From a virus (lineage: Duplodnaviria > Heunggongvirae > Uroviricota > Caudoviricetes): a stretch of 10,675 nt of DNA. Below are positions 1 through 10,675 of the stretch, one piece after another (position 1 is the first letter of the stretch; every line of letters starts with the position of its first letter). Where the stretch lies: positions 1 to 10,675 of IMG/VR virus record IMGVR_UViG_2645727640_000051. One strand, written 5' to 3'. The translations under genes and the position numbers were made by a program. The notes beneath the pieces were generated by a model. The model saw only the letters and a program-made list of their open reading frames with translations. It searched no databases and was not told the origin of the DNA.

Positions 1-531
1 TTATTCAGGCTTTTGTGGCCATTCGGGCTTTGCTGTATCCACACGGTTGACCAGAACGCTGTAGCGTTCCCATGACTCCAGTCGTGTACGCTCCTCATCC
101 GTCGCCATATTCAGCCTGACAGCGCGTTCCAGTGGCTGAATAACGCTTTCAGCTTCAGAAAGCAACGCGGCCTTTTGTGATTCGGCCTGTTGTTGTTGCT
201 CGTCTGCCGTATAAATCCGTTTAACCACAGCTCCGTCCCTAAACATCCACTTACCGGAATCATCAGCGCGGCGGTTGGCTGTAATATCTGGAACCTCAAC
301 GACGCTATAACCTTCAGGGTTAAGCGTGGAGGCATCTTTGGTGATGGCGACAATAATATTATTTGCATCGTAAACAATCTTTATTGTGTCTGGCTGAAAG
401 TTCTTCACTTCCTCATACCAGTTTTTTCCGTCTTCGGACCATAACCAGATAACATCAAAATTCTTTGTTAGCTGATATTGTTCTTTCGTTTTAGGATTTC
501 CAGACTTAATATTTTTTAAATGCTGCATCAT
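1..531 (-). CDS. Tail fibre assembly protein (Tfa; Mu U / P2 G / TfaE family)
   Basis: 176-aa ORF with tandem ATG start (MMQ...) placed directly after the stop of the upstream tail-fibre ORF (TAA-ATG-ATG). The C-terminal part (…[27 protein letters not shown]) resembles the conserved C-terminus of Tfa proteins. The window starts at its stop codon. Confidence 0.88.
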
Positions 532-1698
532 TTACACCTGTGCGACGTTATACCATGTGCCATTGATGTATTTTTGTATTGGCCTGAATACTGCTGGGTC
601 ATCACCATCAACAGCGCCAATAATGCCAAGCCCTGTAATTACATGACCTGATTTTTCATACATCACACCTTTTCGCATAGTCTGAACAACACGTGTACCC
701 AGGCGAACATCTTTTACATAGCGTGAATCAAAATTCCCCCAGTTGTTGGGCTGTATCTGACCGTTAACAGAAAATATTACCGAGTTATCTGTATTTCGCT
801 GACTATAGAAATGCCAGCCTGAATCATCACCAAGCTCTGCAACAGTTGGTCTTGACGAATTTCCCCACAAGCTAAATGATGCATTACGGGCAGCGGTATT
901 TGCACTTGAAAGTGTGAATAACTTACTTTCCCCAGCCTGAATACCCTTTAATGATATTGCTGAACCATTTATAAAGCGGAATACATGCACACCATTAGCA
1001 TAAGCATCCAGCACCCCATCACCATTTTGTTTAAACCCGGTATCGTTATCTCCTAAAACAATCGAGTTACCGCCAAGAGCACTGGATGTTCCGATGCCCA
1101 GTGCACCATTCAATTGACCGCCAGATAATGACAACGCCCCAACCTCAGCAGCAGTCGGTTTAATGTGCGAACTGTAAATTACATATACAGTTCCATCTGT
1201 CAGACCTGTTGGTTTATTCGCTGTATAAGATGGTGATGTATGAATCGTTACGCTGGCGTTACTGGTATAATCCCACTGAATATTAACACCTGTGGCGTAA
1301 TTACCTATTTCAACATAAACATCATAGGTATCACCGGATGTATTCACCCATGCAAAATTAGTAAATCCAACCGATGTCCGTCGCCATAATGCACCAGTAA
1401 TGCCTTTTGGATTCCCATTTCCTGCACGCAGAACCAGCTCAGAGATGCCTGCTTGATGCGAGGAGCCAACGTTATACCCTGCGCCACCAATCAGGCTTAT
1501 GTAAACCACGGAACTGGCTTGTGGCATTGTTACAGTTGCCAGTTTGAACCATCCAGCACCACCACTAAAAGACATGGTTGTTGAATTTGTTGTGCCGATA
1601 TTACGCAGGAATAGTTTTTTATCGGGAATATCTGCGCCGTTCTGGTTTTTCTGTAATGCACCAGAAGCCTGATTTACCGTTTCCTGTAAACCGAGGTT
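532..1698 (-). CDS. Tail fibre protein, variable C-terminal (receptor-binding) cassette; N-terminally open, no own start; currently in the non-expressed orientation of an invertible segment
   Basis: The ORF track gives 532-1575 from the first ATG, but the frame stays open upstream to 1698 and is closed only by a TAA (minus strand, 1701-1699) lying inside the recombination site. Gly/Ser/Thr/Asn-rich fibre-like composition, followed immediately by the tfa gene. This arrangement matches Mu Sv-U, P1 and e14 cassettes. Confidence 0.8.
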   Translation of the reverse strand, partial: NLGLQETVNQASGALQKNQNGADIPDKKLFLRNIGTTNSTTMSFSGGAGWFKLATVTMPQASSVVYISLIGGAGYNVGSSHQAGISELVLRAGNGNPKGITGALWRRTSVGFTNFAWVNTSGDTYDVYVEIGNYATGVNIQWDYTSNASVTIHTSPSYTANKPTGLTDGTVYVIYSSHIKPTAAEVGALSLSGGQLNGALGIGTSSALGGNSIVLGDNDTGFKQNGDGVLDAYANGVHVFRFINGSAISLKGIQAGESKLFTLSSANTAARNASFSLWGNSSRPTVAELGDDSGWHFYSQRNTDNSVIFSVNGQIQPNNWGNFDSRYVKDVRLGTRVVQTMRKGVMYEKSGHVITGLGIIGAVDGDDPAVFRPIQKYINGTWYNVAQV

Positions 1699-1706
1699 TT
1701 AGATAA
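1681..1706. other. Serine-invertase crossover site (gix/hix/cix/pix-type), 12-2-12 imperfect palindrome TTCCTGTAAACC-GA-GGTTTTAGATAA
   Basis: Read directly from the sequence: two 12-bp imperfectly inverted half-sites (…AAACC / GGTTT…) around a 2-bp core, located 55 bp upstream of the invertase start and overlapping the 5' end of the tail-fibre cassette frame. From memory it is near-identical to Mu gix. Confidence 0.8.
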
Positions 1707-1760
1707 TGGCGGTTTCTGGCCTGCATGGCATGATTTGTGCTTTTGGACGGGAGATTCAGC

Positions 1761-2351
1761 GTGCTGATTGGCTATGTAAGGGTATCAACAAATGACCAGA
1801 ATACAGACCTGCAACGAAACGCTCTTGTTTGTGCAGGATGTGAACAAATATTTGAAGATAAATTAAGCGGGACAAAGACTGACCGACCGGGATTAAAACG
1901 CGCTTTAAAGCGCCTTCAACAAGGTGACACGCTGGTTGTCTGGAAACTGGATCGCCTCGGGCGAAGCATGAAACATCTGATTTCTCTCGTCGGGGAACTA
2001 CGGGAGCGAGGGATTAATTTTCGTAGTCTGACCGACAGCATAGATACATCTTCTCCAATGGGGCGTTTTTTCTTCCACGTGATGGGTGCCCTGGCTGAAA
2101 TGGAACGTGAATTAATTGTTGAACGTACACTGGCCGGACTGGCGGCAGCGCGCGCACGGGGGCGCACAGGCGGACGTCGACCGAAGCTGACAAAAGAACA
2201 GCATGAGCAAATAGCAAGGCTGATTAAAAACGGTCACGACAGAAAACAACTGGCAATAATTTACAGCATTGGTATATCGACAATTTATCGTTACCACCCC
2301 GCAGGAGAATCAAGTGGAACAATTGAGAAGAGTAAACAAAATAACCGCTAA
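1761..2351 (+). CDS. Site-specific DNA invertase, Gin/Pin/Cin/Hin family (small serine recombinase)
   Basis: Translation from the GTG at 1761 gives MLIGYVRVSTNDQNTDLQRNAL…, the canonical N-terminus of this family, with the catalytic Ser in the VRVSTNDQ motif and a C-terminal HTH region. GGGAG lies 8 nt upstream. The ORF-track start at 1737 (also GTG) adds 8 non-conserved residues and is less likely. Confidence 0.93.
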   Translation: MLIGYVRVSTNDQNTDLQRNALVCAGCEQIFEDKLSGTKTDRPGLKRALKRLQQGDTLVVWKLDRLGRSMKHLISLVGELRERGINFRSLTDSIDTSSPMGRFFFHVMGALAEMERELIVERTLAGLAAARARGRTGGRRPKLTKEQHEQIARLIKNGHDRKQLAIIYSIGISTIYRYHPAGESSGTIEKSKQNNR

Positions 2352-2376
2352 TCTGGCCATTAGCGGTTTTTGTGTT
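2343..2376. terminator. Bidirectional intrinsic terminator between convergent invertase and U genes
   Basis: Perfect 10-bp inverted repeat AACCGCTAAT / ATTAGCGGTT (2343-2352 and 2359-2368) with a 6-nt loop, followed by TTTTTGTGTT on the plus strand and by AUUUUGUUU on the minus strand. The left arm contains the invertase stop codon. Confidence 0.7.
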
Positions 2377-2379
2377 AAA

Positions 2380-2874
2380 TCAGAACAGCCCTTTAACGGA
2401 GCTGGCCGCGCTGTTAAGGGATGATGTGACCTTATCTTTGAAGCCGGACAGCATATCGCTGAACGATGAGGATTGCAGGCGCTCCCGCAAATCCTCATCA
2501 CAGCGTTCAAGGGTCAGTGAAAACTCTATCTTTTTCGCCTTGCCGTAGCGATCAAACTCGGAACGGGTCGTATTCGTTTCAGTCAGTACATACATGCCGT
2601 AAATCTGCCCGACACCATCAATCAGAGGCCAGGGGCGTCCTGTATATGCCTGCGTGGTCAGCAACGAAAGCGACACTTCGCCACCTGTAATTTCAGGATA
2701 AAGCACGCCGGAAAGCACGATGCGATCATCACCTGCGCCGATATACTGCCAGCTTGCTGAACGGTTAACGCGTTCATTTTTCACATGCCGCCAGCTTTTG
2801 TTTTGCTGTAACTGCTGATGCGGCAATGTGCGCAGCTCAAAAACAAACATGCCGTAGATCATCATCATGGCCAT
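2380..2874 (-). CDS. Phage tail protein, P2 gpU family
   Basis: 164-aa ORF (…MFVFELRTLPHQQLQQNKSWRH…) in the position and of the size of P2 U, directly downstream of the tape measure gene. The true start may be the 3rd ATG (2868), since GAGGAG lies only 2 nt before the first ATG. Confidence 0.8.
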   Translation of the reverse strand: MAMMMIYGMFVFELRTLPHQQLQQNKSWRHVKNERVNRSASWQYIGAGDDRIVLSGVLYPEITGGEVSLSLLTTQAYTGRPWPLIDGVGQIYGMYVLTETNTTRSEFDRYGKAKKIEFSLTLERCDEDLRERLQSSSFSDMLSGFKDKVTSSLNSAASSVKGLF

Positions 2875-2880
2875 GACTCC

Positions 2881-5730
2881 TCAATCTTTATCGTAAAAAC
2901 TGCCACGCCCGGCACGGGCGCGCCGTTCCATTTCTGCCCTGACCATTTCGCCAACCAGTTTCGCCAGTTCGCGGGGATTCTGTGTAACAACGTTATGCAG
3001 ATGAACATGAATTTCACCGCCAAATCCGGAGGCAACAGGCTCCCGGTTACGGGAAGTTGCAGGAACTGATGCCACTGGCGATCGTATAGCCTCCGCCACC
3101 GGGCGGGAGCTGGCCGCAACAACAGGGACCAGCGCCGGAGGCAGCGGAGCCGGAACCACGGGTGTGATAGTAATTGCGGGGGCAGGCTTACTGACCTGCG
3201 CAATCTTCCGCTCCTGCCACTCCCCACGAACAGCAAGTGCGCGGGGCAGGTTCTTAAAGACAATATCGCCAGGGCCAATGCGTTTTTTCGTCTCATCAAC
3301 CAGCTTACCTGTGTTATCAGCAATTTTGCTGAGTCTGCGTAGCGTACCGGTATTGTTGTCTGTGAGCGGTTTGTTGTCTCTGGGTTTATCGCCTTTTTTG
3401 TCGTCGACCTTATCTGACGGGGCCGGGCCGGGAGTCCATGGTTTCTGAACCATTTTCTTGAGAACCGGATCCCATTCCCACATTACAGGAGCCTTTGAAG
3501 CGTTCTCTATTTTCTTTCTCGCCCGTTCCGCTTCATCCGGAAGCACTCCGAGCTTTTCAAGTATCCACGCCAGTGAATCCATCAATGCTTTTGTTGGCGT
3601 CAGGACAAGCTCTATCGCTCCACCGAGTACCCTGCCGAATACCTCGCCAGCACTGGTACATTTATCCAGCGTTTCCTTGCTGGACTCCATCGGTGACAGC
3701 AGCGATTTAAACCAGTTAAAGACCTGAATAATCCCATCGCGCACGACATCAAAAACTGGACCGAACCGTTCAAAGGTTTCGCGCAACGGAGCCAGCCGTT
3801 CCATAATCCCACTGAACACCCCTGCATAAAACGCCTTGATGGGTTCCCAGTATTTCCAGATGAGAACCGCCGCAGCCACAAACGCAGCAGCAATCAATCC
3901 GACCGGGCTGAACAGCGCCCCGATAGCGCCCCCCAGTAACGAAACGGAACCCGTCACCATTCCCCATAGTGCTGGCAGGAGCCTGACAGCATTCATTGAT
4001 CCGGTCAGGAGGGAAAAGCCAAGACGCAGTTTTGCCAGCGGGCCAGCAAGCACACCAATAGCCAACGACAACGAGCCGACCGTTGCAGTCATCGCCAGCA
4101 ATGCCCCACCTGCAATCAGTAGCTGGCGCGTCAGTGCCGGATGGGCCTGCGCCAGCGCCGTCACCTTTGATACCACCCGCGTGAGCCACTGCGTGACAGA
4201 ACGCAGCGGACCGTCAATCAGATCTGCAATGCGGATGCGCAACCCTTCCCATGCACTGCCGAGTGATTTCAGATCGCCGTCAAGGTTGTTGGCCATAACC
4301 TTTGCCGTGCGTTCAGCCTCACCGCGTGCGCCTTCAAGTTCTTTTCTCAGTTTAGGTAAGGATCCGTCACCTGCCGCATCAACGAGGGCCATAAATGATG
4401 TGAAAGCCTCTTCTCCGGCAATGTCCTTAAAGAACGATACCCGATCAACTTCTCCGTATTTGCGGGTGGCTTTATAAAGGTCAGTCAGCAGATCTTCCAT
4501 CGGGCGCATTTTGCCCCCGGCATCCGAGACAGACACGCCCAGCTCTTTCAGCGCCTCTGCTGCCGCCTTTGGCGGTGATGCCAGACGAGCCAGGCTGGCA
4601 CGCATTGCCGTCCCGGCATCACTTCCCCTGATACCCATATTCGCCAGCACGCCCGCCATCGCTGCGGCCTGCTCCAGCGATATTCCCAGCTTACCCGCCA
4701 CCGGACCTGCATATTTCATGGTTTCGCCCAGTGCGCGAAGGTCAGTGTTGGTACGGGTAAACGCTGCAGTGAGTGTGTCACCGACCCGGTCCATCTGGTC
4801 AGCAGAAAGGCCGAACTGCGTCAGGATATTTGAGCCAATATCCGCCGTCTCGCCGAGATCCATACCGCCAGCCGTTGCCATGCTCAACACGCCGGGAAGC
4901 GCAGCCTGAATGGCCTGCGGTGTGAAGCCAGCCATTGCAAGAAATGCCTGCCCACTGGCGGCATCGCCTGCGGTGAACTGCGTTTCAGAGCCAAGTTTTA
5001 ACGCCTGCTCACGCAGCGCCTTAAACTGCGGGCTGTTCTGGTCGATTCGCGTCAGCGCCTGAACGCGGGACATCTCTTTCCCGAACCCGATCGCAGGCTG
5101 CAAAAAACGCCCGGCAGCATAGCCGCCCGCCGCTGCCGCACCTGTTGCCAGTGCACCACCTGTTTTCAGTTTTCCCGCGGTTTCCTGCGCGCGCGAATAC
5201 CGCTCACGCGCCCGCGTTACACGCGCAAGCGCCTGCCGTTCGCGTTCAAGCTGGTTGTTGTACTGTTCGGTGCGTCTGATGGCCTGTTGAATGGTGTTAT
5301 CGCTGCCTGTCAGGGAAATGCCGTGGCGTTTCAGCTCTCCGCCAAGCTCCCGCATTTTCTGAATCTCCCGTGTGCGCGATTCATTCAGGCGTTCAAGCCG
5401 GGTGCTTAACTGCTGCATCAGCTTTTGTTGTTTTTCGCTGAGCACTGTACCCGTGTGTTGTAACTGATTAAGGGCGTTAAGCTGGCGTCGCGCTTTCAAT
5501 ATGCCAGCATCCGCTTTACTGACAGCGTCACGGGCGCGCTCAAATGAACGCGCCTGACGCTCGAGATTTTTGATCGCCCCCTGCGTTCGCTGGATGGAGT
5601 CACCAAACTGCCCCATCAGGCGGCGGGCGTTTTCGGCAGGCCGGGTCAGCCTGTCAACGGCGCTGAAAGCGACCCGGATATCAAGAGTCTTCATTGTCTG
5701 CATTCCCGCTGCGAAGTGCCGCCCGCTCAC
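2881..5730 (-). CDS. Tail tape measure protein, P2 gpT family
   Basis: Very long ORF, Ala/Gly/Leu-rich with a predicted coiled-coil N-terminal part and hydrophobic Gly-rich stretches, sitting between E/E' and U as in P2. The ORF-track start (5730) is a GTG; ATG starts at 5703 or 5694 (MKTLDI…, overlapping the E' stop) are more likely. Confidence 0.85.
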   Translation of the reverse strand: MSGRHFAAGMQTMKTLDIRVAFSAVDRLTRPAENARRLMGQFGDSIQRTQGAIKNLERQARSFERARDAVSKADAGILKARRQLNALNQLQHTGTVLSEKQQKLMQQLSTRLERLNESRTREIQKMRELGGELKRHGISLTGSDNTIQQAIRRTEQYNNQLERERQALARVTRARERYSRAQETAGKLKTGGALATGAAAAGGYAAGRFLQPAIGFGKEMSRVQALTRIDQNSPQFKALREQALKLGSETQFTAGDAASGQAFLAMAGFTPQAIQAALPGVLSMATAGGMDLGETADIGSNILTQFGLSADQMDRVGDTLTAAFTRTNTDLRALGETMKYAGPVAGKLGISLEQAAAMAGVLANMGIRGSDAGTAMRASLARLASPPKAAAEALKELGVSVSDAGGKMRPMEDLLTDLYKATRKYGEVDRVSFFKDIAGEEAFTSFMALVDAAGDGSLPKLRKELEGARGEAERTAKVMANNLDGDLKSLGSAWEGLRIRIADLIDGPLRSVTQWLTRVVSKVTALAQAHPALTRQLLIAGGALLAMTATVGSLSLAIGVLAGPLAKLRLGFSLLTGSMNAVRLLPALWGMVTGSVSLLGGAIGALFSPVGLIAAAFVAAAVLIWKYWEPIKAFYAGVFSGIMERLAPLRETFERFGPVFDVVRDGIIQVFNWFKSLLSPMESSKETLDKCTSAGEVFGRVLGGAIELVLTPTKALMDSLAWILEKLGVLPDEAERARKKIENASKAPVMWEWDPVLKKMVQKPWTPGPAPSDKVDDKKGDKPRDNKPLTDNNTGTLRRLSKIADNTGKLVDETKKRIGPGDIVFKNLPRALAVRGEWQERKIAQVSKPAPAITITPVVPAPLPPALVPVVAASSRPVAEAIRSPVASVPATSRNREPVASGFGGEIHVHLHNVVTQNPRELAKLVGEMVRAEMERRARAGRGSFYDKD

Positions 5731-6219
5731 GCCAGCTAACCACTTCGCCGGGCGTCATCATGAAGATTTCGGCGGGCGACCAGTTAAAAATGGCGGCAAT
5801 ATCCGCCACCAGATCTTCGATGTGCTCAAAGCACACCAGGGTGATTACGCTGCCGTCTCCTGCACGCTCTTCGCGCCAGAGTCTGGCTCGCTCATAAAAT
5901 TTACAGCCACAGCGCACAACTGAATAAAATCGCGTGACGACATTTTTTTAATCATCACTTCATCCAGTCGTGGCGAGGTCACGCGAGGCAACAGCGTGAA
6001 CATGGTATCCGCTTTCAGATTCAGCACATCAGACAGCGACAGACCACGCAGGGATCCAGCCTGCTCAATAGCCCCGGTGATCTCCACATACGTGATTTTT
6101 TCGCCACCACGCTCAATTGGTCGGGTCAGTTTTACGCCACGTTCGACAGCCATATCCTCACCTGCCGTCACATCATCCGCCACGGTGTTATTCCGGGTTT
6201 CAGTATCGATGTCTTTCAT
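5681..6219 (-). CDS. gpE+E' fusion product made by programmed -1 translational frameshift (inferred)
   Basis: The -1 frame relative to E is open from the TAA at 5950-5948 to the TGA at 5683-5681 and overlaps the last ~35 codons of E. The conserved G/GT- and E/E'-type frameshift is established for tail chaperone genes upstream of tape measure genes. Confidence 0.6.
5845..6219 (-). CDS. Tail assembly chaperone, P2 gpE family
   Basis: 124-aa ORF immediately downstream of the tail tube gene, with a strong RBS (AAAGGAGA, 6 nt spacer, ATG at 6219). Its position between the tube and tape-measure genes is that of the lambda-G / P2-E chaperone. Confidence 0.75.
   Translation of the reverse strand: MKDIDTETRNNTVADDVTAGEDMAVERGVKLTRPIERGGEKITYVEITGAIEQAGSLRGLSLSDVLNLKADTMFTLLPRVTSPRLDEVMIKKMSSRDFIQLCAVAVNFMSEPDSGAKSVQETAA
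5943..5949 (-). other. Candidate slippery run (A7 on the coding strand) for the E to E' -1 frameshift; alternative canonical heptamer A-AAT-TTT at 5896-5902
   Basis: On the coding strand the sequence reads ATT AAA AAA ATG in the E frame, and the -1 frame opens exactly here (its stop TAA is 5950-5948). A second in-frame X-XXY-YYZ heptamer, AAATTTT, covers E codons N107-F108. Which one is used cannot be decided from sequence. Confidence 0.35.
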
Positions 6220-6274
6220 CAGTTGTCTCCTTTTCAGTCAGAGGCGACGCACTGCGCCGCCTGCATATTACTTA

Positions 6275-6787
6275 TCAGCCAAGCCCAAGCGCGGAACGGA
6301 TACGGTCAGGCACAATGTCCTTGCCGTCCTTCCGGTAGATGTGGTTCAACAGGTCGATTTCCCACAGCGGGCGATCGTTAACGCTCAGCTTGTAGTAGGT
6401 GTTTTTGACAGCGTAAGTGTGTGATGTGGCTTCGCCCTGTTTGGCTTCCCCCATATCAATTTCCGTCACACGTCCGCGCATCTCGATTTCATACAGATCG
6501 CTTTCTGCATCGGTGTAGTATTCACCCGCAAAACGCAGCAGCGTGCCGTCAATCGTGCCGCCATATTTAAGGAACAGCGCACGAACAGCTCCCCCCATAA
6601 CAAAACTCGCATCAAGCGCGGAGTCGTCCAGACCGAGATCAATACTTACCGCCCCCATCATGCCACCACCACGATAGCTGTCGGTTTTGCGCGTCAGTTT
6701 GGGCGGCGTGACGGATGTCACTTTACCCACTTCGTTTTCACCATCCACAAACAACGTAAAAAAGCGAAGATGTTTTGGTACAGCCAT
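6275..6787 (-). CDS. Tail tube protein, P2 gpFII family
   Basis: 170-aa ORF whose start overlaps the sheath gene stop by one base (TGATG), in the position and of the size of P2 FII. Confidence 0.85.
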   Translation of the reverse strand: MAVPKHLRFFTLFVDGENEVGKVTSVTPPKLTRKTDSYRGGGMMGAVSIDLGLDDSALDASFVMGGAVRALFLKYGGTIDGTLLRFAGEYYTDAESDLYEIEMRGRVTEIDMGEAKQGEATSHTYAVKNTYYKLSVNDRPLWEIDLLNHIYRKDGKDIVPDRIRSALGLG

Positions 6788-7971
6788 CAGGCACCTCCCA
6801 GCACCGCAAATGCGGGACCAAAGAATTCATCAGTAAACGTCTGGTAAAGCTCCATGTCTTCCAGTGGCGGAACGGGCGTATATTTGTAGCGAATACGCAC
6901 ACGTCCCTGACGTAAATTCGTGGTGCCGTTATCCACCACGTCATACCAGCACTCCGCACCAATCAGTTTCCCGGCAGTAACCAGCGAATCCAGTTTTGCC
7001 CTGATGGCACTGATAACATCCTTCACGTTCGCAGGCGTCAGTGGACTGTCGATGGTTTCAAACTGCGCTTCCGCAATTGAATCAGCCAGCACCTGTGCGG
7101 TTCGGGTATACACCTCAAAGATGTAGGCGTTCGTTTCCGGTGTGCGGTTGCCCCAGAAGCGGAACCCGTTGCGACGAATAATGGTCGTGATTTCTTTGTT
7201 ATTGAGGCTGTTGGCATCACTGTCTTCGGCCTGCAACGACCAGAACACATGCCTGGACATTCCCAGCACATTTTTAACCGGAACGTTGGACAGCGATTTG
7301 TGCCAGCCCTGCTCATGGTCAATGTACGCACGAAGGCCGCACGCATAAGCAGGCGCGGGGAACGTTTCGTTTTTGCCACTTTTCGGGTTGTAGGCGATGA
7401 AGTCAGGCCATAAGAGCATCACCTCACGTTCGTTGAATTTCTGGCGGTAGGTAATCGCCTCAGCCATCGTGTTACAACCATGACATGTGGCATACACAAA
7501 CGCGCGCAGTTTACCCGCAATCACGCACAGGGATTTTGTTACCGCCTCCGTGTCCAGCTCCGGCGCGGCCAGAATACGCGGACGGTATCCGATGCTTTCA
7601 TCCTGCTCTGCAACAAGCAGCGCATACATCCCCGTATAGCTGCCGTCATCCTCAGAACCACCGATAACCAGTTGATCCTGCGTCTTTCCGTCTTCTTCTT
7701 TGTGTTCAGCCACGCGAACGACGATCACCTTTGTGCTCACCTGGTCTGCGATGGCCTTAAGCGCACGATAAAGCGTCCCCGTTGTTCCGCATTTTCCCAG
7801 CACGTCATTGACGCGGGTCAGCAGTGTGGGCTTGTTCAGCGGGAACAGCTTCGCGTCCGCATCATCCGCCGTTGCCACGATACCGATAACGCTGGAATCA
7901 ACATCGTTAATCGCTGTTACCAGGTCGGTATTTTCCGTAACACGGGCACCATGAAAACGAGTTTCACTCAT
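6787..7971 (-). CDS. Contractile tail sheath protein, P2 gpFI family
   Basis: 394-aa ORF with several stretches recalled as conserved in P2 FI (…WPDF…, …FRFWGNRT…YTRTAQV…, …Y.YTPVPPLE…), and the right size. Confidence 0.9.
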   Translation of the reverse strand: MSETRFHGARVTENTDLVTAINDVDSSVIGIVATADDADAKLFPLNKPTLLTRVNDVLGKCGTTGTLYRALKAIADQVSTKVIVVRVAEHKEEDGKTQDQLVIGGSEDDGSYTGMYALLVAEQDESIGYRPRILAAPELDTEAVTKSLCVIAGKLRAFVYATCHGCNTMAEAITYRQKFNEREVMLLWPDFIAYNPKSGKNETFPAPAYACGLRAYIDHEQGWHKSLSNVPVKNVLGMSRHVFWSLQAEDSDANSLNNKEITTIIRRNGFRFWGNRTPETNAYIFEVYTRTAQVLADSIAEAQFETIDSPLTPANVKDVISAIRAKLDSLVTAGKLIGAECWYDVVDNGTTNLRQGRVRIRYKYTPVPPLEDMELYQTFTDEFFGPAFAVLGGA

Positions 7972-8127
7972 AGCTTCAGCCCCTTGTATCCGTTAAATGA
8001 TTCGGCAACAATCATCACCCACCACGCGCGTAATCTCACCCCTGCGCCGTTCTCCCGACCCGGCGACAACAAAAAGCAGTAACCCCCTCCGCACGCACAT
8101 GCGACCATGCCGCACAGGGAGGGAAAG
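7972..8127. promoter_or_regulatory. Divergent intergenic region expected to carry the late promoters for the FI operon (leftward) and for D (rightward)
   Basis: 156-bp gap between the divergent starts of FI (7971, minus) and D (8128, plus). This is a positional inference; no canonical sigma70 or Ogr box could be confirmed by eye. Confidence 0.35.
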
Positions 8128-9237
8128 ATGACCGACACCACCATGCAATTGCTCAGTCAGGGCACAGACCCCGTGAAAATGCCGGATTTTGATATTCTCG
8201 CGGAGGGTAAAACGCTGTCAGGCGTGGCAGAGCGCCTGATGAGCCTGTCACTGACCGACAACCGGGGATTTGAGGCGGACCAGCTCACCATCACGCTGGA
8301 TGATGCGGATGGTCAGTTGCAGCTACCGCCACGGGGCGCGCGCCTGACGGTTCTCATTGGCTGGAAAGGAGAACCGCTGACAGAAAAAGGCACTTACATT
8401 GTTGATGAAATCGCTCACGAAGGACCGCCGGACAGGCTGACTGTTTCAGCCAGAAGCGCAGATTTTCGGGATGAATTTAACGTTAAACGTGAGGTGTCAT
8501 GGCATGATGTGACCGTTGAGCGTGTGGTATCCGCCATCGCTCATCGGTACGGCCTGAAACCGCAAATCAGCGAAATGCTGATGGATATCGAAATCGACCA
8601 CGCCGACCAGACTGAAGAAAGCGACATGTCCTTCCTTACGCGCATGGCGGAAATGCTGGGCGCAATCACCACGGTAAAAAGCGGTAATCTGTTATTCATC
8701 ATGCCCGGCGGTGGCGTGAACGCACAGGGCCAGCCGTTGCCATCGTTCGCCATCACACGCAGCAGCGGCGATCGCCATCAGTTCCGCATTGCTGACCGCG
8801 AAGCGTATACGGGGGTACGCGCTTACTGGCTTGATCTTAATTACGGGAAAAAGAAAAAAGTCAGCGTGAAACGCCGCAAACCGCCAAAACCCAAAAAGGA
8901 GAAAAGCAGCAGCCGTGAAGGTGATTATATGGAAGGCGCGGAAGGCAATGTGTTTGTGTTACGCAAAACTTATCAGAACGAGCAGGCAGCAAGACGCGCA
9001 GCAGCGGCAAAGTGGCAGCAGCTACAACGCGGAGCCGCATCATTCTCCATCACGCTGGCGCGTGGACGTGCAGAACTCTACCCTGAAATGCATGGCACGG
9101 TGACAGGCTTCAAAAATGACATCGACAATCAGGACTGGATTATTGCAAAGGCCGAGCACACCATTGATAACAGCGGTTTTACCACGCAGCTTGAGCTTGA
9201 AGCAAAAATTCCTGACTGGATAGCGGAAACTGAATAA
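8128..9237 (+). CDS. Phage late control / tail protein D (P2 gpD family)
   Basis: About 370-aa ORF immediately upstream of ogr, as in P2 (D-ogr). The start at 8128 (MTDTTMQ…) is preceded by GGGAGGG; the ORF-track start at 8107 lacks an RBS. Confidence 0.8.
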   Translation: MTDTTMQLLSQGTDPVKMPDFDILAEGKTLSGVAERLMSLSLTDNRGFEADQLTITLDDADGQLQLPPRGARLTVLIGWKGEPLTEKGTYIVDEIAHEGPPDRLTVSARSADFRDEFNVKREVSWHDVTVERVVSAIAHRYGLKPQISEMLMDIEIDHADQTEESDMSFLTRMAEMLGAITTVKSGNLLFIMPGGGVNAQGQPLPSFAITRSSGDRHQFRIADREAYTGVRAYWLDLNYGKKKKVSVKRRKPPKPKKEKSSSREGDYMEGAEGNVFVLRKTYQNEQAARRAAAAKWQQLQRGAASFSITLARGRAELYPEMHGTVTGFKNDIDNQDWIIAKAEHTIDNSGFTTQLELEAKIPDWIAETE

Positions 9238-9275
9238 AATGAAATGGAGTTCAACTCTCACGGGGAGTCATCATT

Positions 9276-9524
9276 ATGTTCAGATGTCCATTCTGCGGCG
9301 CTATGGCCCGCACCCGCACCAGCCGAAGAATGACCAACATGACAATCAGGCAGTATCACCAGTGCCAGAATCTGGAATGTAGCCGGTCATTTACCACGCT
9401 TAATAGCGTGGAAAGGGAAGTCACAAAGCGCGCAGGTATTGCGCCGTTACCGCCTGACTTCATACCCCACGATGCCTTTCCGGCGTCTCACTACGGAAGG
9501 GATCAACTAAGCCTGTCATTGTGA
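9276..9524 (+). CDS. ogr: Ogr/Delta-family zinc-finger late transcription activator
   Basis: 82-aa ORF with a Cys-X2-Cys…Cys-X4-Cys pattern (MFRCPFCGA…HQCQNLEC) typical of P2 Ogr, 186 B and P4 Delta. GGGGAG RBS 8 nt upstream. Position after D, as in P2. Confidence 0.85.
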   Translation: MFRCPFCGAMARTRTSRRMTNMTIRQYHQCQNLECSRSFTTLNSVEREVTKRAGIAPLPPDFIPHDAFPASHYGRDQLSLSL

Positions 9525-9626
9525 TAAAACCCCACTAACATGCGGGGCTTTATCATTGTTATGTGGACACTTTTGTCGAAGTGTAGTCAATATGTAGACG
9601 AAGTTTAGGATAAATCCTTTTGTTCC

Positions 9627-9649
9627 ATAAGGTTAAGGGCGAGATTTTT
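9627..9649. other. Candidate attR core region (tentative)
   Basis: Sequence ATAAGGTTAAGGGCGAGATTTTT resembles, from memory only, part of the P2 att core (…ATAAG…TAAGGGAGATT), and sits where attR is expected between ogr and host DNA. Unverified. Confidence 0.2.
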
Positions 9650-9665
9650 CCCCATCCCTGTCTTC

Positions 9666-9691
9666 CCCCACATGATGTGGGGTTTTTTTTT
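9666..9691 (+). terminator. Intrinsic terminator (GC stem CCCCAC…GTGGGG followed by a T9 run)
   Basis: Hairpin CCCCACATGATGTGGGG followed directly by nine T residues on the plus strand. It would stop ogr/D read-through before fieF. Whether it is phage- or host-derived is unknown. Confidence 0.75.
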
Positions 9692-9772
9692 ATCCTCAAT
9701 TTGCCTGCTGCTTAATGCATTGCAGATGATTTGCTTCCGTTATACTAGCGTCAGTTGATAGCGGGAGTATTT

Positions 9773-10675
9773 ATGAATCAATCTTATGGACGGCTGGTCA
9801 GTCGGGCGGCGATTGCTGCGACGGCGATGGCTTCGTTGCTATTGCTGATTAAAATTTTTGCATGGTGGTATACCGGGTCGGTGAGTATTCTCGCCGCGCT
9901 GGTGGATTCGCTGGTGGATATCGGCGCGTCGTTGACGAATTTACTGGTGGTGCGATATTCCCTGCAACCTGCCGACGATAATCACTCGTTTGGGCACGGT
10001 AAAGCAGAGTCCCTCGCGGCGCTGGCGCAAAGTATGTTTATCTCCGGTTCGGCACTATTCCTGTTTTTGACGGGTATTCAACATCTGATATCTCCAACAC
10101 CGATGACAGATCCAGGCGTCGGGGTTATCGTGACAATTGTGGCGCTAATTTGTACGATTATCCTTGTCTCGTTTCAGCGTTGGGTGGTGCGCCGGACGCA
10201 AAGCCAGGCGGTGCGGGCTGATATGCTACATTACCAGTCTGATGTTATGATGAACGGCGCAATTCTGCTGGCGCTGGGGTTGTCCTGGTACGGCTGGCAT
10301 CGCGCCGATGCTCTGTTTGCATTGGGAATCGGCATCTATATTTTATATAGCGCGTTACGCATGGGATATGAGGCGGTACAGTCATTACTGGATCGCGCAT
10401 TGCCTGATGAGGAACGGCAAGAAATTATTGATATCGTGACTTCCTGGCCGGGTGTTAGCGGCGCTCACGATCTTCGCACGCGGCAGTCAGGGCCGACCCG
10501 CTTTATTCAGATTCATTTGGAAATGGAAGACTCTCTGCCTTTGGTTCAGGCACATATGGTGGCGGATCAGGTAGAGCAGGCTATTTTACGGCGTTTTCCG
10601 GGATCGGATGTAATTATCCATCAGGACCCCTGTTCCGTCGTACCCAGGGAGGGTAAACGGTCTATGCTTTCATAA
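9773..10675 (+). CDS. fieF: Cation-diffusion-facilitator ferrous-iron/zinc efflux transporter FieF (YiiP)
   Basis: Translation from the ATG at 9773 ([38 protein letters not shown]…) matches enterobacterial FieF: 300 aa, multi-TM N-terminal domain, cytoplasmic C-terminal domain. GGGAG RBS 5 nt upstream. The ORF-track start at 9755 is a TTG and is rejected. Confidence 0.93.

Follow-up and report, generated by a model that had tools for sequence, protein, structure and literature searches.

A probable tail-fibre switch of the Mu G-segment type, seen from its invertase-proximal end, in a P88-like Escherichia coli prophage beside fieF

In this study, the window, meaning the whole 10,675-nucleotide stretch of DNA that was analysed, was found very probably to represent the invertase-proximal end of an invertible tail-fibre switch of the Mu G-segment type, carried by a P88-like prophage (Peduoviridae, Xuanwuvirus) of Escherichia coli that lies beside the host gene fieF. 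An earlier note on this DNA had proposed an architecture like that of the Mu G, P1 C and e14 P segments, and this is borne out, as the elements it named are all present in the window and both isomers occur in relatives. Gin-, Cin- and Pin-type invertible fibre segments have been textbook knowledge since the 1980s. The type of switch is already known and its flipping has been shown in the same prophage family; as a discovery the finding carries little weight, as the P2-family carriers form a named genus (P88, Xuanwuvirus), are present in many E. coli genomes and flip in culture.

The invertase-side border of the invertible segment is marked by a gix-type crossover site at 1681-1706 on the plus strand, TTCCTGTAAACCGAGGTTTTAGATAA, which has the organization used by DNA invertases, that is, 26 bp in which a 2-bp core separates two 12-bp half-sites. 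This sequence occurs only once in the window, at the position given, and differs by one base from each of the Mu sites gixL and gixR. Its significance was assessed with 200 dinucleotide-preserving shuffles, in which a match was counted at three mismatches or fewer, and none of the 200 shuffled controls matched. The invertase-side sites of P88, L001, L012, L014, L017 and L022-L031 were identical to that of the window. A second gix-like site was not found anywhere in the window, either at up to three or at up to nine mismatches. The site is followed by a spacer (1707-1760, plus strand) that leads to the invertase gene and carries the ribosome-binding site GGGAGA at 1749-1754. These data agree with the 26-bp 12-2-12 site described earlier, and also with the statement that it lies 55 bp upstream of the invertase, the gap between the end of the site and the start codon being 54 nt. 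The spacing between site and gene equals that of Mu, where gin starts 67 nt from the G-segment boundary.

The gene at 1761-2351 on the plus strand encodes a Gin-type DNA invertase of 196 aa, which begins with GTG at 1761, ends at 2351 and was also called as a gene in the source assembly. The protein has the composition of a small serine recombinase, with an N-terminal catalytic domain containing the serine (Pfam Resolvase, E 2.1e-50) and a C-terminal helix-turn-helix (HTH_7, E 3.5e-13). It matches the Mu Gin structures PDB 4m6f and 3uj3 at E ~1e-100, and the catalytic Ser9 is kept in the motif YVRVSTNDQ, which aligns to both structures. The invertase is intact, in agreement with what had been claimed earlier for this member of the Gin/Pin family. 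The residues specific to invertases, which contact Fis or the enhancer, comprise Q, R and L of DNA-binding helix 1 together with basic residues of helix B (PMC3798978). Both groups are present in the window, as helix 1 reads EQIARL against EQAGRL in Gin, with Q, R and L kept (Q-x-x-R-L), and the helix-B stretch DRPGLKRALKRL is identical in the two proteins. The exact invertase protein was detected in 152 blocks of the assembly collection, with the same context in all 10 loci shown.

The Fis-dependent enhancer of gin is situated in the 5' part of the gene. Judging from the identity to Mu gin, the 5' part of the invertase gene of the window (1761-2000, plus strand) is the putative location of a Fis-dependent recombinational enhancer, which has very probably been retained, because the first 240 coding bases agree with Mu gin at 232 positions and differ at 8, with complete agreement over the first 110. 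Over the longer stretch 1620-2000, 27 differences separate the window from the gixR-gin region of Mu, of which one falls within the site.

The silent cassette is located on the minus strand, with its 5' end overlapping the site, and consists of a variable C-terminal tail-fibre segment, Hv', and a tail-fibre assembly gene, tfa'. Hv' comprises 388 codons (532-1698, minus strand; identified from the translation and the list of open reading frames) and stands in the silent orientation. Translated across the site on the minus strand, the sequence gives ...I I * N L G L Q E T V N Q..., and the frame remains open from the site to the TAA at 532-534, with no ATG, GTG or TTG in frame before the ATG at 1575 in the list of open reading frames. 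The TAA at 1699-1701, in the outer half-site, stops the Hv' frame, and the codon phase over the site (CTC GGT TTA CAG GAA) agrees with that of the constant fibre gene H of the related P2-type prophage L001. The chaperone gene tfa' (1-531, minus strand) encodes 176 aa and matches Pfam Caudo_TAP with E 2.7e-37. Close coupling of Hv' and tfa' is plausible, because the ATG of tfa' at 531 is the base right after the fibre stop codon. A variable fibre end of this kind, start-less, in frame with the site and with its own tfa next to it, is the arrangement of Mu G / P1 C-type invertible tail-fibre segments. Moreover, a scan for promoters showed no sigma-70-like promoter upstream of Hv' on the minus strand, which is weak evidence alone and fits a silent cassette.

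Three claims of the earlier note concern this cassette. The description of the fibre ORF as start-less, with the site in its 5' end and a TAA closing it, was confirmed when the frame was read through the site, and the silent orientation is upheld by the missing start codon, the missing promoter-like site and the position of the TAA. Regarding the translational coupling of fibre ORF and tfa, the abutting of start and stop codons stands, and the coupling itself is rated as plausible. A protein identical to that of tfa' is also found on SSU5-like phage-plasmids, and in the P2-like prophage L009 the tfa' protein is present in the expressed orientation. The practical use of the finding is in annotation, where the 'partial' or 'pseudogene' fibre ORF beside the recombinase is to be read as a functional silent cassette and not as a product of decay.

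To the right of the invertase, a bidirectional terminator-like hairpin (2343-2368; repeat I5) separates it from the tail operon, which occupies 2380-7971 on the minus strand and is reversed relative to phage P2. From gene calls and Pfam, the operon contains U (2380-2868), T (2881-5694), E' (5681-5836), E (5845-6219), FII (6275-6787) and FI (6787-7971), all on the minus strand, and the order and strands of the genes from U to FI are the same in P88. These are followed on the plus strand by D (8128-9237; Pfam Phage_GPD) and ogr (9276-9524; Pfam Ogr_Delta), which together (8128-9524) form the right end of the prophage. The host gene fieF (9773-10675, plus strand) lies just beyond, and the junction between prophage and fieF recurs in E. 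coli KA0011 and 81009. P88 (NC_026014) is colinear with window positions 1625-9233 at 93.8% identity over 7,629 aligned bases (~7.6 kb). In its high nucleotide identity to P88 and in its gene order, with an invertase that stands between fibre cassette and reversed FI-to-U operon, the window has the features of Xuanwuvirus. The tail module of canonical P2 (genus Peduovirus) does not fit, as the window has an invertase and a different strand layout.

The closest relatives are those in E. coli 99-3165, SCU-111 and 81009, the last inserted at the same fieF site, together with phage P88 and ten loci at which the invertase matches that of the window at 100% identity. The full architecture, consisting of a constant fibre gene, two convergent cassettes and the invertase, was observed in L001, L014, L017, P88 and L022-L031. 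In the relatives the partner site TTCCTGTAAACCGAGGTATTCGATAA lies in frame within gene H, and the tfa stop codons of the convergent cassettes are ~28 nt apart. In all intact relatives, including the ten with the identical invertase, the second site stands in inverted orientation 2.9-3.1 kb away.

Comparison of the relatives revealed both isomers of the segment. L022 and L024, which both carry an invertase identical to that of the window, are colinear in their flanks at 99.3-99.9% identity, and between the flanks a 2,953-bp segment is inverted at 98.6% identity and bounded exactly by the two 26-bp sites. L001 is likewise the opposite isomer of L014 and of P88, with the breakpoints at the sites. 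Additionally, one lambdoid prophage at the trp/ompW locus displays the cassette segment in opposite orientations in two strains, the outer half-sites remaining with the flanks. For the P2-like prophage of EPEC E2348/69 at 1.89 Mb, co-existing inversion variants have been documented by sequencing and PCR (PMC4272514); its backbone is 93.6% identical to window positions 1767-9238. The paper on P88/pro147 (PMC5285337) nowhere mentions inversion. It had been predicted that a partner site, a second cassette and the constant fibre region would lie to the left of the window, and all of them stand at the expected places in relatives, but the 154 nt that adjoin the window here are without the 3' end of a convergent tfa.

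With reference to known systems, P88 and P88-like prophages, including that of EPEC E2348/69, share one order and strand arrangement, namely H, tfa, tfa', Hv', the invertase, U-T-E'-E-FII-FI in reverse, and D; in L001 and L019, which are related prophages, D is followed by ogr, a gene left unannotated in the P88 record. The deposited P88 genome carries a tfa and fibre tip like those of the window in the expressed orientation, and the prophage of EPEC E2348/69 differs from the window in its cassettes and its site variant and has three repeats. The cassette of the window is a private mosaic. The Mu G segment with gin shares with this type of prophage a constant fibre gene, two convergent cassettes of fibre end plus chaperone, and an invertase gene directed away from the segment. 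It differs in its carrier, which is phage Mu as against a member of the P2 family here, in Gin having 193 aa against 196 aa for the invertase of the window, with divergence in the C-terminal DNA-binding domain, and in the outer half-site, where the TAA stop of the window corresponds to CAA in Mu. The P1 C segment (cin) and the e14 P segment (pinE) follow the same switch logic on other phage backbones and with other constant fibre parts, and e14 has a site of the AAACCTTGGTTT type (PMC4272514 supplement). Lambdoid prophages (e.g. at trp/ompW) contain the cassette family of the window, again with different constant fibre parts and backbones.

Phage P2 shares with the window the protein families of U, T, E, FII, FI, D and Ogr and of the H/G-type fibre tip, and window positions 1-1081 align with G and the distal part of H of P2 at 82.5% identity. 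Beyond the fibre tip, DNA-level alignment to P2 is restricted to 140 bp within gene D. In P2 the H-G pair is single and fixed, an invertase is lacking, and the genes from FI to D, with ogr, share one strand; the P2 map agrees with what had been said earlier of canonical P2. The related proposal of a module grafted onto a P2-like tail holds as regards the P2-like tail, but the arrangement is the normal layout of a described genus (P88, Xuanwuvirus) and nothing unusual.

The mechanism proposed here is based on the relatives and on the Gin/Hin literature, from which we infer both the flipping of this copy and the left half of the segment in this genome. The Gin-type invertase (1761-2351) would bind the site at 1681-1706 and the inverted partner site within H, and host Fis, bound at an enhancer within the 5' portion of the invertase gene, would promote strand exchange at the central 2 bp. 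This exchange would flip a segment of ~3 kb. In the present orientation, Hv'-tfa' (from 1698 down to 1) would face away from the constant part of H and, with no promoter, no start codon and a closing TAA, would be silent. Inversion would let translation run from the constant part of H directly into Hv' (...I E Y L G L Q E...), with tfa' translated behind it, and the flipped state would be expected to yield virions with a different receptor-binding tip.

The left edge of the window requires separate consideration. The source contig, JHRS01000145.1 (GCA_001265595.1), is 100% identical to the window and ends 154 nt to the left of it. In this flank, ~33 shared bases are followed by the backbone of an SSU5-like phage-plasmid, and the 35 nt past the tfa stop match the central part of the P1 and P7 C segments exactly. 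A convergent cassette with its tfa stop codon at a spacing of ~28 nt is absent from the 154 nt beyond the window, the stretch over which this was assessed. The phage-plasmid loci L004, L007 and L010 match window positions 1 to ~590 and the flank at 100% identity, and Hv' is a mosaic that resembles the P2-type prophage L001 down to ~1055 and the SSU5-type plasmid L010 below ~1059. The plasmid-type distal half of the cassette, with the flank, reflects either genuine recombination or a chimeric assembly. In a tentative reading, which we consider possible but not probable, the silent cassette was rebuilt in vivo from an unrelated phage, an SSU5-like siphovirus phage-plasmid having supplied a receptor-binding tip, its matching tfa and 120 nt or more of the backbone downstream to the invertible segment of a P2-family myovirus prophage; the silent arm would then serve as a cost-free landing pad for host-range modules until inversion. 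If the exchange is real, tip and chaperone move between different architectures, a siphovirus-type phage-plasmid and a P2-family myovirus. Somewhat doubtful is the opposite reading, according to which the switch itself is real but the distal half of the cassette is foreign, window positions ~1-1059 and the 154 nt having come from a co-resident SSU5-like phage-plasmid and been joined through homologous fibre sequence during assembly. Apart from the identity to the three plasmid loci, it is favoured by the last ~120 nt of the flank, a plasmid-backbone sequence which among 5,426 complete E. coli genomes occurs only on plasmids (72-126 kb, mostly ~110 kb) and never beside a chromosomal invertible segment. 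The 347-aa fibre ORF, moreover, is found in its exact form only in GCA_001265595.1, the nearest full-length protein reaching 91% (at the DNA level, window 1-1780 is matched at 90.6% at best in complete genomes), and the join lies 1.2 kb from the contig end. Nevertheless, L001 and L010 as parents share few bases at ~1055-1059, too short for a k-mer-based mis-join, and a third-source patch at 589-694 and base 1072 are unlike both parents, which resembles natural mosaicism of fibre genes. The uniqueness of the ORF also says little, since the tape-measure protein of the window likewise occurs in its exact form in this one assembly only. A simple two-parent, repeat-mediated mis-join was not demonstrated, given the few shared bases at the switch point and the third-source patch, but is possible. 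Draft assemblies tend to break or mis-join at silent cassettes of this type.

Returning to the reading of the window as one end of a G-segment-type switch, it is unlikely, though worth weighing, that the invertase and the right-hand site are what remains of a switch whose left segment has been lost or disrupted, leaving the visible cassette permanently silent. Such decay does happen in this lineage, because in KA0011, the closest prophage at the same fieF site, IS26 stands in place of a stretch running from the distal part of H into tfa' and the middle of the segment is lost; strain 81009 has frameshifted cassette genes. The 154 nt at the left, which are not the expected convergent tfa and at which the contig stops, point in the same direction, contig ends being typical of repeats such as an IS element. 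However, technical breaks of contigs are expected in invertible segments anyway, and long disuse is disfavoured because the invertase, the site, Hv' with its 388 open codons and tfa' are all intact. We regard it as highly improbable that the invertase acts mainly elsewhere, for example on the FI-to-U tail operon or in trans on a host locus, in the manner of the Fin invertase of Fels-2 on the Salmonella flagellar switch. The FI-to-U block is indeed reversed relative to P2, and cross-action of prophage invertases is documented (Kutsukake 2006, as cited in PMC4272514). Invertase sites bordering this block are nonetheless ruled out, as no second gix-like match with nine mismatches or fewer was found there or elsewhere in the window, and all relatives examined carry the FI-to-U block in one and the same orientation.

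The interpretation of positions 1-2351 in the earlier note, that of a Mu G-type invertible tail-fibre switch in its silent orientation, was found to be correct in kind, with every described element confirmed in the sequence and the full layout and both isomers observed in relatives. It is an unexceptional example of a type of switch that is already well known: the parts present in the window are a Mu-type gix site, a Gin invertase and a silent cassette of fibre end plus chaperone, and the host prophage belongs to a described genus in which this layout is standard and flipping has been demonstrated.

The proposed 26-bp crossover site, TTCCTGTAAACCGAGGTTTTAGATAA, occurs only once in the window, at 1681-1706, and no match to it with three or fewer mismatches was obtained in dinucleotide-preserving shuffles. 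On the minus strand the frame at the site reads I I * N L G L Q E T V N Q, with a TAA (1699-1701) inside the outer half of the site, and then stays open for 388 codons, ending at the TAA of 532-534; the earliest in-frame start codon of this variable fibre segment (Hv') is the ATG at 1575, so that the fibre frame is start-less and closed within the site, as had been described. Its suggested pairing with a tfa gene also holds, as tfa', a 176-aa ORF running from 531 down to 1 and assigned to the tail-fibre assembly family (Caudo_TAP, E 2.7e-37), begins on the base directly after the fibre stop codon. The neighbouring gene is a Gin/Pin-family invertase as claimed: it has a GTG start at 1761, 54 bases to the right of the site and preceded by GGGAGA, and encodes 196 aa with Resolvase and HTH_7 domains, matching solved phage Mu Gin structures with E about 1e-100. 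It keeps the catalytic serine and, in DNA-binding helix 1, the Q-x-x-R-L residues which set enhancer-dependent invertases apart from resolvases (PMC3798978). Comparatively, each of the two gix sites of Mu differs from the window's site by one base, the distance from site to gene start is equal, and the gene shows no difference from gin over its first 110 bases and only 8 over its first 240. Since the Fis-dependent enhancer is located in this nearly identical 5' part of gin, it is very probably retained here. Between the converging invertase and U genes lies a hairpin (2343-2368) whose 10-bp stem is perfectly paired and which has a T run on either side, likely a bidirectional terminator.

The window as such is absent from all complete E. 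coli genomes, and the same prophage type is found in hundreds of genomes. In E. coli 99-3165, V, W, J, I, a 2.4-kb fibre gene H and tfa are followed on the opposite strand by tfa' and a start-less fibre fragment, then by the recombinase, U-T-E'-E-FII-FI on the reverse strand, D and ogr; SCU-111 and 81009 share this order, the latter integrated at the window's fieF site. Phage P88 (Peduoviridae, Xuanwuvirus) keeps to it up to D, with 93.8% identity to window 1625-9233. All four carry a partner site, TTCCTGTAAACCGAGGTATTCGATAA, inverted inside H and about 3 kb from the invertase-side site. Because its translation, I E Y L G L Q E, is in the same codon phase as the window cassette, strand exchange at the two central bases would join Hv' in frame to the constant portion of H.

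Inversion itself is evident among relatives. The window's exact invertase protein was found in many assemblies, and of the ten such loci displayed, some express a 760-aa fibre with a 176-aa chaperone and others a 788-aa fibre with a 177-aa chaperone. Two of these prophages (L022 and L024) have colinear flanks (99.3-99.9% identity), with the 2,953 bp between the sites inverted at 98.6% identity and the breaks falling at the outer edge of each site. The same pattern separates 99-3165 from SCU-111 and from P88, as well as two strains that share, at their trp/ompW locus, one lambdoid prophage with cassettes of this family, where the outer half-sites remain with the flanks, as expected from central crossover. 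In EPEC E2348/69, inversion variants of two P2-like prophages co-exist in single-colony cultures, as revealed by sequencing and PCR (Goldberg et al., PMC4272514). One of the two, at 1.89 Mb, shares its backbone with the window (93.6% identity across window positions 1767-9238) and differs from it in cassettes and site variant.

The left half of the switch in this genome is putative, drawn from relatives. The window matches a portion of contig JHRS01000145.1 (assembly GCA_001265595.1) at 100% identity, and the leftward extension that had been proposed was run, reaching only the contig end 154 nt beyond position 1 (L011, 11576-11729). Though the predicted partner site, second cassette and constant fibre region are present in relatives, the convergent tfa, which starts 28 nt past the tfa' stop codon in every intact relative, is absent from these 154 nt, and mostly plasmid backbone stands in its place. 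Agreement with relatives is limited to the first ~33 nt, a terminator hairpin; the centres of G and C segments have this hairpin too, with identity to P1 and P7 across the first 35 nt. The ~120 nt after it correspond to SSU5-like phage-plasmid backbone, as in phages Cyrano and CMS-2020a, and among 5,426 complete genomes were found only on plasmids of ~72-126 kb. The cassette is itself a mosaic: from 1720 down to about 1055 the nearest sequence is that of the 99-3165 P2-type prophage, below about 1059 it is that of the plasmid fibre and tfa (with full, 100% identity leftwards of about 590), and 589-694 is close to neither. The tip-plus-chaperone module may truly have been captured from a phage-plasmid, or the sequence may have been mis-joined at the contig end, and the distal half of the cassette is only a candidate part of the prophage. 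The exact mosaic was found in no other assembly or protein of the large collections searched; the window's exact tape-measure protein was likewise in no other assembly searched, so that this prophage lineage as a whole is a rare one. Within it the switch may also have decayed, because in the KA0011 prophage at the same fieF site IS26 takes up the middle of the segment. In this prophage, the closest at that insertion site, an IS26 copy (L002, 11245-11949) replaces distal H, the first cassette and part of tfa', destroying the switch and leaving the invertase intact.

SSU5-like phage-plasmids (L003-L008, L010) encode a tfa protein 100% identical to the window's, and so does a P2-like prophage (L009), where it is expressed. 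Fibre tip and chaperone appear to travel jointly among siphovirus-type phage-plasmids and P2-like, Mu-like and lambdoid prophages. The sole lead with some novelty is a possible exchange of host-range modules between a siphovirus-type phage-plasmid and a P2-family prophage, via the switch's silent arm.

Elsewhere the window consists of a P2-family tail module, with U (2380-2868), T (2881-5694), E' and E (5681-6219), FII (6275-6787) and FI (6787-7971) on the minus strand, and D (8128-9237), ogr (9276-9524) and the host fieF (9773-10675) on the plus strand. The FI-FII-E-E'-T-U operon (2380-7971) thus lies opposite to D and ogr (8128-9524). As the earlier note said, P2 has a single fixed H-G pair without an invertase; the P2 map also places the genes from FI through D, and ogr, on a single strand. 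The window is therefore P2-family of the P88 type rather than the P2 type. Since the FI-U operon runs on the opposite strand, unlike the single operon of P2, D must have its own promoter in the divergent spacer 7972-8127. The reversed FI-to-U arrangement was also noticed in P88 and all related prophages examined, and no gix-like sites flanking this block were found in the window. The second phase-variable 'P2' locus of EPEC E2348/69 (L020, 2.977-2.987 Mb) is a prophage remnant that retains only the invertible cassettes, a recombinase and the genes from FI through D plus ogr, all of them on a single strand as in the P2-type order; hence both tail-operon orientations co-exist with invertible fibres in E. 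coli. At 9525-9772 the right end of the prophage (ogr) adjoins host fieF. E. coli KA0011 and 81009 share this junction, which makes the stretch upstream of fieF a recurrent attachment site of such phages.
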